NCBI GenBank assembly: GCA_027451965.1
Contig: DAIDHJ010000001.1
Span: forward strand, 23,639-87,638
DNA: 64,000 nt
Source of the DNA: Candidatus Adlerbacteria bacterium
Lineage (GTDB): Bacteria; Patescibacteriota; Minisyncoccia; Phycocordibacterales; SBAW01
Direction of reading: 5' to 3'
Positions 30,863 through 33,800 of this stretch are shown piece by piece. Each line of letters begins with the position of its first letter. Position 1 is the stretch's first letter. A model generated the notes under the pieces. That model saw nothing but the letters and a program-made list of their open reading frames with translations, was not told where the DNA came from and ran no database searches. Made by a program: the position numbers and the translations under genes.

Positions 30863-33800
30863 CCTTCTCTCCAAGCTGGAAAAACTCGATCGATTAGTAC
30901 TTCTCAGCTCAACACATTACTGTGCGTACACTTAAAGCCTATCAACGTCATCATCTCTGACGGATCTTAATGATTCCTCATCTTAGAGTCGGTTTCGCGC
31001 TTAGATGCTTTCAGCGCTTATCCAATCCCGACATAGCTACGCTGCGGTCCTCCTGGCGGAAGAGCAGCCAGACCAGCGGTCAGTTCACTCCGGTCCTCTC
31101 GTACTAGGAGCAAATCTCTTCAAGAATCGACGCCTGCAGTAGATAGGAGACCAACCTGTCTCACGCATCTACACACTCAAAGAATATATATTGAGTGCTC
31201 ACTCATTACTGAGTGGATTGGACTGTATCATCATCCAAGTTATGGATGGTCAACATGCAGTCTCTACGGGCTTCTCTATGTTTATAGAAAATTCCCTCGG
31301 TATTGCCCTCGATATTTCGTTCGGGTTTTACCGATATCAGTTGACTTGTCGATATACATTGCTGCATATCGCCGCCGTGATATATGTTGCAACAGAATAT
31401 TTTATATTTCCTCGTGGATTCAGACTGCTTAAAAGCCGATTCGCATCAGCGTCTAAACGGTCTGAACCCAGCTCGCGTACCATTTTAATTGGCGAACAGC
31501 CAAACCCTTGGGAGCTTCTTCACCCCCGGGATATGGTGAGCCGACATCGAGGTGCCGAACTCCGCCGTCGCTGTGGACGCTTAGGCGGAACTAGCCTGTT
31601 ATCCCCAGAGTAGCTTTTGTCAGATAATCTTCCACCGCATCTAACGCGGATGGTCGGTTCACTATGGTCTGCTTTCGCACCTGTTCGGCATTTACGCCTT
31701 ACAGTCAAGCCGGCTTTTGCCATTGCACTATCGGCACGGTTTCCATTCGCGCCTAGCCGACCTTAATACACTCCTCCGTTACTCTTTAGGAGGATAGCGC
31801 CCCACTAAAACTGCCCACCAGATACTGTTTCGATACGGTTTTGCCGTATTGATTAGCGCATACAAAGAAAAAGAGTGGTATTTCACTGGCGAGTCCACCT
31901 CAGCCAAAACCGAGACTTCAACCTCTCCCACCTATGCTACGCAGTCACTTCATATACGCAATATCAAGTTGCAGTAAAGCTTCTGGGGTCTTTTCGTCTA
32001 TCTGCAGGTAACCGGCATCTTCACCGGTATTGTATTTTCACCGAGCTGTGCTCCGAGACAGTTCCCCAGTCGTTACACTATTCGTGCGCGTCTGAACTTA
32101 CCAGACAAGGAATTTCGCTACCTTAGGACGATTATAGTTATCGCCGACATTCACCAGGGCTTACATAACGTCAGCATGCCATACTTGCGTACAGCACACC
32201 GGCCATGTTTGACCTTCTGGCATTGGTCAAGTGTCACCCCCTATACATCCTCTTACGAGTTCGCAGGGAGCTGTGTTTTTGGTAAACAGTCGCCAGGGAT
32301 ACTTTCGCTGCGGCCCTCTTGCGAGGGCAAGCCTTATTCCGAAGGTACGGCTGCTTTTTTGCCGAGTTCCTTGGAGCACACTCACTCGTTCGCCTTGCTC
32401 TACTCGAGCTGATCACCTGTGTCGGTTTGCGGTACGGTCGTACAGATACTGAAGCATAGAAGCTTTTCTTGGAAGGCTCTTCTTGTTCGTCGCACAGCAC
32501 CGAAGCGCTGCACTGCCTTGCTGTGCACGATAGTCACCATTGAAAGTAGCATGCCGGATTTTCCTAACATGCCTATCTCGCACCACAAACGTCAATCCAA
32601 TAAGACGCGAACAATTATTTCCTCCGTCACTCCATAGCATATCTGCCGGTCACGGAATATTAACCGTGTGTCCATCACCTCCGACTTTCGTCATCGGCTT
32701 AGGCCCGACTAACCCTTGGTTGATCACCATTGCCAAGGAAACCTTGATCTTTCGGCGTGCGGGGATCTCACCCGCATTGCGGTTACTTGTGCCTGCATTC
32801 TCACTTCCCAACGCTCCACTATGGCTCACGCCTTTAGCTTCATTGCAATGGGAACGCTCTCTTACCGCTTGGAAATTCCGAAAAACTTCCAAGCCCTCAG
32901 TTTCGGTACTACGTTTAAGCCCCGATTATCTTCGGCGCAGAATCTCTCGATGAGTGAGCTGTTACGCTTTCTTTCAATGATGGCTGCTTCTAAGCCAACA
33001 TCCTCATTGTCTAAGAAACTCCACCTCCTTGTGATGCACTGAACGTAGATTTTGGGACCTTAACTTGAGATCCGGACTCTTCTCCTTTTGTACGGTGGAG
33101 CTTAGCCCCCACGTACTAACTGCCGTAGAACATGTTCGGTATTCGGAGTTTGATAGGACAAGCGAGATTGCTCCCTGTCTTGTCCTTCCAGTGCTCTACC
33201 CCCAAACATTAATCACTACGACGCCAGCCCAAAAGCTGTTTCAGAGAGAACCAGCTATTACAAAGTTCGATTAGCTTTTCACTCCTTACCACAGGTCATC
33301 CGATAGTTTTGAACGGCTAACCGGTTCGGGCCTCCGTGTACCTTTCGGTACACTTCACCCTGCCCATGGCAAGCTCACTTTGCTTCGGGTCTTATGCGTA
33401 CTACTAACGCGCTATTCACACTCGGTTTCCCTACGACTCCACACTCTCGTGCTTAGTCATGCGCAGCACACATAAACTCGCAGGCTCATTCTTCAATAGG
33501 CACGCCGTCGAGGAGTTACCCCCTCTTCGACTCGTTGTAGACATATGGTTTCAGTTCTTTTTCACTCCCCTCACCGGGGTGTTTTTCACCTTTCCCTCAC
33601 GGTACTAGTTCACTATCGGTATTTGAAAGTATGTAGCCTTACCGGTTAGTTCCGGCAGATTCACTCAAGCTATTCATGTCTTGAGCTACTCAAGGACAAT
33701 TAAAAAGTTGTTTCGATTTCGCCTACAGGACTTTCACCTTCTGGGGTGCTGCTTTCCAGCAGTTTCGGCTATCTAACAATTTGTAACTTTTTGTTCCTCG

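Follow-up and report, generated by a model that had tools for sequence, protein, structure and literature searches.

The Cr.LSU intron of the Chlamydomonas reinhardtii chloroplast 23S rRNA gene, which encodes I-CreI, interrupts the same homing site (GACGU followed by CGUGAGACAG or the like, split between positions 2593 and 2594) as the element analyzed here, a 291-nucleotide (nt) insert in the 23S rRNA gene of a 64,000-nt stretch of Candidatus (Ca.) Adlerbacteria DNA (assembly GCA_027451965.1, contig DAIDHJ010000001.1, positions 23,639 to 87,638; hereafter the window). Cr.LSU is an organellar intron of 888 nt that bears an open reading frame (ORF) and has a P7.1/P7.2-bearing architecture, and it was reportedly placed in subgroup IA3 by Michel and Westhof. 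Bacterial introns at the same site (L2593) have been described from three thermophilic cyanobacteria, Thermosynechococcus elongatus, Synechococcus lividus C1, and Synechococcus sp. C9, in which they measure ~745 nt, encode a single-motif LAGLIDADG endonuclease, and carry a P7.1/P7.2 extension of ~65 nt (Haugen et al. 2007, PMC1995217). For the candidate phyla radiation (CPR), Tsurumaki et al. (2024, PMC11270868) credit Brown et al. (2015) with first noting group I introns at 2593 and cite the same work for the removal of CPR rRNA insertions from transcripts. According to their survey, Rfam classifies 45% of CPR 23S insertions as group I introns, 222 of them ORF-less; LAGLIDADG_1 genes in CPR 23S concentrate at 1917, 1931, 1952, 2593, 2604, and 2657, with 2593 among the hot spots 23IS6-8 and 12-14; and, the ORF aside, ORF-less and ORF-bearing introns of one site closely resemble each other. 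Further group I introns in bacterial 23S genes are those of Thermotoga (L1931), Simkania (L1931), and Coxiella (L1917/L1951) (PMC1995217; PMC11270868), which resemble the window insert in residing in domain IV/V of the 23S rRNA and in belonging to LAGLIDADG-associated lineages, but which occupy other sites and hosts and are mostly ORF-bearing.

Our analysis indicates that the window insert is very probably a compact, endonuclease-less group I intron, carried by a host from the CPR/Patescibacteria close to Ca. Adlerbacteria. It shares its host clade, its insertion site, and the existence of both ORF-bearing and ORF-less forms with the CPR L2593 introns treated in PMC11270868. An ORF-less L2593 intron is an ordinary feature of CPR bacteria and such introns have already been catalogued, and in this respect the window copy brings little new biology. 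Its secondary structure, with respect to the position of the guide, the exon-clamping 5' stem, and the lack of P7.1/P7.2, is not described in the accessible portion of that paper. With the cyanobacterial L2593 introns (PMC1995217) it has in common the 23S site, the group I fold, a short P5, and a P2, whereas it differs from them in its length of 291 nt, the absence of an ORF, a spacing of only 3 nt between P7 and the 3' strand of P3 (P3'), and an insertion of ~77 nt in the P1 loop. The traits of the IA3-like L2593 introns, namely a P7.1/P7.2 of ~65 nt and a guide near the splice site, are not those of the window intron, in which the guide starts at intron position 78.

Position of the insert and its group I core

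The 23S rRNA gene occupies positions 30873..34145 on the minus strand (3273 nt; Rfam LSU_rRNA_bacteria, 2358.6 bits, model positions 1-2925), in agreement with the ~3.27 kb given by an earlier reading of the DNA made from its letters without database searches (the sequence-only reading). In a MAFFT pairwise alignment of this gene with E. coli rrlH, where GAACGUCGUGAGACAG begins at 2588 and the U of GAACGU is therefore 2593 and the next C 2594, a 291-nt insertion is placed exactly after E. coli 2593. The insert covers 31166..31456 on the minus strand, between the equivalents of U2593 (window 31457) and C2594 (window 31165), and we number it such that intron position i is window position 31457-i. 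Read on the minus strand from 31456 down to 31166, the 5' exon GGGUUCAGACCGU is followed by the intron, with the ends UUAGACGC...GUGUAGAUG, and by the 3' exon CGUGAGACAGG; the first bases of the insert are UUAGAC, the last are GUAGAUG, and the longer exon context is GAGCUGGGUUCAGACCGU before it and CGUGAGACAGGUUGG after it. Because the UUAG of the intron differs from the CGUG of the exon, and the intron-final G from the exon U, these boundaries are unambiguous and cannot be shifted. The sequence-only reading had thus located a discrete 291-nt insert correctly to the base, including the exon U that precedes it and the G that terminates it. No second 23S gene was seen in the window, and the insert interrupts helix 93 of this one, next to the peptidyl-transferase centre.

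A scan with the Rfam model Intron_gpI (RF00028), which the sequence-only reading had suggested for its putative group I intron, returned a match to the full model (1-253) at 31199..31401 with an E-value of 2.4e-10 (over 3.4 kb). The match is full length and significant, but its score of 47.8 bits falls 2.2 bits short of the curated gathering threshold of 50, which counts against the group I reading, and at gathering thresholds the scan reported no intron in the window 23S. It should be noted that the gathering score is a database cut-off rather than a biological feature, and that the model leaves P1, P10, P7, and the 5' domain unscored. In practical terms, a default Rfam scan misses the intron by ~2 bits, and the insert therefore needs to be removed manually for rRNA annotation and 23S phylogeny.

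For a comparative view, one genome per bacterial or archaeal species was scanned for GAGCTGGGTTYAGAMCGT followed by a base other than C, which yielded at least 120 loci. Among the loci listed, 87 hold a discrete and complete insert of 213-835 nt before CGTGAGACAG, ~13 are merely C2594U variants, and the remainder have a further interruption or reach the end of the contig. At least 55 of the inserts at 2593 contain the sequence anchors of the window intron and are referred to as its subtype, while a second intron type (class B) was found in Acidimicrobiia, Omnitrophota, a deltaproteobacterial metagenome-assembled genome (MAG), and some Saccharibacteria. The homologues were compared by anchor-based parsing and MAFFT alignments, with the fold statistics taken from 29 intron cores. 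From these cores, RNAalifold predicted P10, P2, P3, P4, P5, P6, P8, and P9, with compensatory changes in 30 of 41 pairs. When the P7 pseudoknot is added to this structure, 96.4% of the cells are paired, versus 32-40% after the partners are shifted by 1-3 columns; changes on both sides are found in 31 of 46 pairs, and the covariation score is 0.53 versus 0.07-0.10 in the slid controls. None of 500 shuffles matched any observed measure of pairing or covariation, and the minimum free energy (MFE) of the whole element has a z-score of -7.8 against shuffles. The invariant boxes of the aligned homologues are ACGGCG, the UCG of P4, GUAGAGACU, AGUCC, and the terminal omega-G, and all helices are intact in the window copy. 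The group I identity put forward by the sequence-only reading is thus supported, and a P3-P7 core with a predicted guanosine-binding site can be modelled. The strongly covarying set, which numbers at least 55 homologues, offers a clean model, built by comparison, for a minimal ribozyme at L2593.

The elements of the core all lie on the minus strand. P2 (31351..31370; intron 87-94/99-106) is a hairpin of 8 bp closed by a GCAA tetraloop of the GNRA family, and all 8 of its pairs show compensatory changes. P3 is formed by GUCAAC (31340..31345; intron 112-117) and GUUGAC (31249..31254; intron 203-208), which are 95.8% paired among the homologues with compensatory changes in 6/6 pairs. The P4-P6 domain (31268..31334; intron 123-189) consists of P4 (UCGG/CCGA; intron 123-126/157-160), the joining segments J4/5 (UAAAA) and J5/4 (CAAUA), a P5 with a small extension (CCC/GGG; intron 132-134/149-151), and P6 (GGG/CCC; intron 161-163/187-189), which continues into P6a (UUUUCUAU/AUAGAGAA). 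The P8 hairpin (31232..31248; CAUCCA/UGGAUG, intron 209-214/220-225) has compensatory changes in all five counted pairs. The segment 31174..31215 contains P9 (intron 242-247/252-257), which has a GUAA tetraloop (GNRA), is 100% paired, and is compensatory in 5/6 pairs, together with an optional P9.1 (intron 260-266/277-283) that is common to the intron of locus L108 and is present in the MFE fold. The omega-G is G291 (31166), which adjoins exon C2594 and is invariant in 29/29 aligned homologues.

The 5' strand of P7 (31258..31264) comprises G193, a bulged A194, G195, A196, C197, U198, and G199, in a region where GTAGAGACT is invariant among the aligned homologues. Its 3' strand, CAGUCC (intron 232-237), follows J8/7 (AUGAUA, intron 226-231) at 31220..31231, where A-AGTCC is invariant. 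P7 is 100% paired in the homologues, the last pair being G-C in 10 and A-U in 19 of them. The putative pocket is made up of G193-C237, the bulged A194, and G195-C236 within the invariant GUAGAGACU...AGUCC. The order G-C, bulged A, G-C, A-U, C-G is the classical guanosine pocket of group I introns, and G195-C236 is inferred to be the guanosine-binding pair. Only the three nucleotides CAU separate P7 from P3', which leaves the intron without P7.1/P7.2.

One detail of the sequence-only reading had to be given up, namely its proposal of GCAGUC...GACUGC as P3. Both motifs exist (intron 29-34 and 195-200), yet covariation identifies P3 as GUCAAC/GUUGAC. The proposed pairing shows no covariation, the 5' motif staying unchanged when the P7 strand goes from GACUG to GACUA, and it is not P3 because GACUG belongs to P7, where it pairs as the 5' strand with CAGUC (232-236), while GCAGUC is an exon-pairing strand (see below). 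A pairing of the invariant ACGG with the conserved CCCGU before J6/7 was likewise rejected, as that CCC is the 3' strand of P6 and becomes GAGU, GGGU, or CUUU where P6 covaries, while ACGGCGG stays invariant.

The covariation also bears upon whether the intron is still active. A decayed, non-splicing group I intron that is retained in the mature 23S rRNA, as reported for Simkania L1931, would agree with the lack of an endonuclease or maturase, the short P1 described below, and the Rfam score under the gathering score, and an 'unspliced' bacterial 23S intron is indeed on record (reference 28 in PMC11270868). Set against this are a catalytic core in which every element is intact and 31 of 46 pairs covary, with P7, J8/7, and the omega-G invariant; a guide that never varies and that complements the exons perfectly; and the location in helix 93 of the window's one 23S gene. 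CPR insertions are, in addition, reported to be absent from transcripts (PMC11270868). We therefore regard retention as very improbable. The analysis shows the position, fold, covariation, guide complementarity, and family distribution of the window intron, while its actual splicing and the role of its 5' domain are inferred.

Guide sequence and the long 5' stem

The putative internal guide sequence consists of CACG and GCGG in direct succession (CACGGCGG; 31372..31379, minus strand; intron 78-85) and stands one base before P2. This 8-mer can form all 8 bp with the ligated exons, CCGU plus CGUG, at -12.3 kcal/mol. GCGG (82-85) would form P1 with the 5' exon CCGU, with a G82-U(-1) wobble at U2593, and CACG (78-81) would form P10 with the 3' exon CGUG, a helix that RNAalifold predicted as well. 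ACGGCG is invariant in sets of both 24 and 29 homologues, and xCACGGCGG occurs in 49/54 parsed introns. Exon position -4 and the last guide base covary, such that the exon GACCGU accompanies GCGG in 60 cases, including two introns whose P1 loop is short, and the exon GAACGU accompanies GCGU in at least 22 cases, with a single exception overall. The class B introns and that of locus L028 have a homologous CAYU-GCGU or CACU/CUCG-GCGG, which is at most 20 nt away from the splice site. We assigned the 8-mer as the guide because it is invariant, complementary to the exons, covarying with exon -4, and homologous to the 8-mer of these relatives with a short P1 loop.

In the subtype of the window intron, the distance from the splice site to the start of the guide 8-mer is 61-252 nt (77 nt in the window copy; GCGG at intron positions 62-253), and the intervening sequence begins with a long stem that spans the 5' splice site (31421..31464, minus strand). 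In this stem, exon -8..-1 (CAGACCGU) and intron 1-11 pair with intron 18-36 (UCGGCUUUUAA GCAG UCUG); intron 1-11 is matched with 18-28, and the exon-binding strand GCAGUCUG (31421..31428; intron 29-36) is matched with exon -8..-1. Pairing is seen in 88.8% of the cells, versus 24-44% when the strands are slid, 11 of the 19 pairs are compensatory, and the stem also appears in the MFE fold. The pair of exon C(-8) with G36 is replaced by U:A in 4 of the 54 parsed introns (exon UUUAGACC), without any mismatch. The splice-site U faces an A within this stem in 45/54 members (a G in the window copy), and exon C(-3) faces a conserved A; exon -4..-1 would therefore be held only weakly there and strongly by GCGG. 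We also considered the long stem itself as the catalytic P1, which is less likely given the A that faces the splice-site U in 45/54 members and the conserved A opposite C(-3). Furthermore, this assignment would leave the invariant exon-complementary 8-mer unexplained, while the relatives with a short P1 loop use the homologous 8-mer.

Several observations weigh against our assignment of P1 and of the 5' domain. The P1 of the window copy has 4 bp only, with C86 facing A(-5), and a competing local helix is available between exon -4..-1 and intron 29-32; in this helix, the splice-site U of most relatives faces A rather than G. Apart from the conserved AAUCC..GAGG and, ahead of the guide, a semi-conserved AAGACA, the homologues yielded no common fold for intron 37-77. 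The choice between the two exon pairings as the catalytic one turns upon the invariance of the guide and its homology with that of the short-P1-loop relatives.

A mechanism that would accommodate these features can be proposed. The intron would fold into its P3-P8 and P4-P6 domains round the P7 pocket, with G195-C236 and the bulged A194 ready to bind guanosine. GCGG would pair with exon CCGU such that U2593 makes the G-U wobble of P1, and exogenous guanosine would attack after U2593. Omega-G291 would enter the pocket next, with CACG holding the 3' exon CGUG as P10, and exon ligation would restore helix 93 adjoining the peptidyl-transferase centre. The GNRA loops capping P2 and P9 probably serve in the usual tertiary contacts. 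Throughout, UCUG (33-36) would stay on exon -8..-5 as a clamp stacked under the 4-bp P1; alternatively, the entire 5' stem may be a transient co-transcriptional structure that gives way to P1. Lacking an endonuclease, the intron would now be inherited vertically or mobilised in trans.

The P1-loop domain with UCUG on exon -8..-5 is most likely either such an extra exon clamp or a transient stem that sequesters the splice site. In class B introns and L028, where the guide is no more than 20 nt away from the splice site, P7 and P7' are 81-96 nt apart, whereas in introns with a distant guide, as in the window's subtype, this spacing is 28-69 nt in 44/48 parsed cases; an extension of the size of P7.1/P7.2 is visible in L085, L113, and L028. 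Class B introns such as L085, L113, and L058 match the description of the cyanobacterial L2593 introns better than the window's subtype does. Thus, in the sampled introns a long P1-loop domain hardly ever occurs together with P7.1/P7.2, and that one functionally replaces the other would be speculation. A bolder proposal, which we consider possible but rather doubtful, is that the window intron belongs to a structural subtype of L2593 introns not described before, which has lost the P7.1/P7.2 of its IA3-like ancestors and has a structured P1-loop domain of 60-250 nt instead, with UCUG on exon -8..-5 acting as a sequestering switch or extending the guide in a discontinuous, pseudoknotted manner. 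If true, it would be a natural model for holding a very short P1 of 4 bp or for timing splicing in ribosome assembly; the exon-clamping 5' domain and its exclusivity with P7.1/P7.2, if confirmed, would be of interest to the field of ribozyme structure.

A covariation-supported stem of 19 bp across the 5' boundary might also be read as an RNase III cleavage site, in which case the insert would be an intervening sequence excised without religation to leave a fragmented 23S rRNA. Intervening sequences are known from bacterial 23S rRNA, and PMC11270868 proposes them for some short CPR insertions. Exon and intron together form the stem, which does not join the two ends of the insert, and its cleavage would cost conserved rRNA. 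The sites given for intervening sequences (PMC2801512, PMC4990558) are helix 25 and helix 45, not helix 93. Moreover, fragmentation would leave the group I core, the omega-G, and the exon-complementary guide unexplained, and we give this explanation a smaller chance still than that of a retained intron.

As a separate observation, the conserved 5' motif ACAGUCUGAAUCC (31416..31428) resembles the P7 3' strand and J7/9 of the same intron (ACAGUCCAAUCC) as well as the P7-P7.1 junction of class B introns (GACUGGAUCCC; L085, L113, and L058). This likeness could be a coincidence, as all three bind AGAC-containing strands, or a trace of internal duplication.

Endonuclease genes and relatives at the same site

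The sequence-only reading had seen no homing endonuclease in the insert and had assigned it to an I-CreI-type site, and both statements are borne out. The longest ORF on the rRNA strand encodes 53 amino acids (aa) and the antisense ORF 140 aa, and neither these two nor two shorter ORFs on the rRNA strand had a Pfam match. In the window intron P6 is a hairpin of 29 nt, and P6 is where the relatives have their endonuclease ORF. Two introns of the same subtype, in L048 (Ca. Adlerbacteria; 715 nt) and L086 (708 nt), have ORFs of 173 and 150 aa, respectively, between the 3' strand of P4 and P7, that is, in P6. The L048 protein is a homologue of I-CreI over its full length (PDB 1BP7, E-value 1.6e-20) and also matches I-MsoI and Pfam LAGLIDADG_1, such that the I-CreI of Cr.LSU has a full-length counterpart in a related Adlerbacteria intron; the L086 ORF encodes an I-CreI homologue as well. 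Judged by these sequence relationships and by its 2593/2594 position, the window intron is an ORF-less member of the I-CreI-type homing lineage at L2593.

The hosts of the at least 120 listed loci are overwhelmingly CPR/Patescibacteria, and the at least 55 subtype homologues come mostly from MAGs of Saccharibacteria, Parcubacteria, Nomurabacteria, Adlerbacteria, and Kaiserbacteria. The window 23S is 90.5% identical to that of L108, a Ca. Adlerbacteria MAG, and 86% identical to that of L048. Among the matches listed, the L108 intron is also the most similar one (79% over 244 nt), and its aligned helices still pair. A public assembly obtained independently (GCA_021825025.1, contig JAKAIP010000071.1) contains the same 291 nt at 100% identity, in flanks that agree with the window at 99.27% over 4957 nt. 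A foreign intron chimerically joined into the 23S gene by assembly or binning, conceivable for a metagenome assembly with rRNA genes being prone to mis-assembly, is the least credible explanation of all, since an identical intron stands in the same place in an independent contig with 36 differing flanking positions and is therefore not an assembly chimera, the nearest listed 23S relative also has the nearest intron, and the pairing of exon -8 with intron 36 fits the host's own exon.

Two loci from Armatimonadota MAGs (L095:97-947 and L102:2209-3061) have inserts of 833-835 nt at 2593 with a different 5' end (UAGCCCAAA..GGCGUGGCGUCC). The 238-aa ORF of L102 is without the I-CreI-type LAGLIDADG motif found in the ORFs of the other introns, and these inserts may be a third type of intron and endonuclease at this site.

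Other features of the window

The rRNA genes of the window are unlinked. The 5S rRNA gene (30711..30818, minus strand; Rfam) is downstream of the 23S gene, and this 23S-5S pair lies ~20 kb upstream of the 16S rRNA gene (9225..10687; 1463 nt; Rfam), which is on the same strand and has no insertion. The 16S gene is followed by tRNA-Ile(GAU) and tRNA-Leu(CAG) (8808..8991, minus strand) instead of the order Ile-Ala-23S. Outside of the intron, the 23S gene has ~88 nt more than that of E. coli after 272-285 in domain I (window ~33778..33879; 23S positions ~267-368), where no Rfam intron match was found, as well as 16 additional nt after 1476, 11 additional nt after 1515, and four deletions of 14-24 nt. 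These length differences are probably helix expansions and reductions of the kind typical for CPR rRNA.

Two large ORFs on the minus strand, 37989..41450 (1153 aa) and 53893..55839 (648 aa), had no NCBIfam match at E <= 0.001. The isoleucine--tRNA ligase encoded at 56417..59923 (minus strand; 1168 aa) matches TIGR00392 with 858 bits in two stretches, and the halves of this match are separated by a histidine-phosphatase/phosphoglycerate-mutase-like domain at aa ~507-661, which is an unusual insertion or fusion. Positions 1..6000 of the window have a GC content of 36-37%, versus ~49% in the remainder, and contain a run of minus-strand ORFs. This low-GC segment is adjoined by a gene for a double GT4 glycosyltransferase of 724 aa at 6588..8762, and may represent a cluster of polysaccharide genes gained by horizontal transfer.

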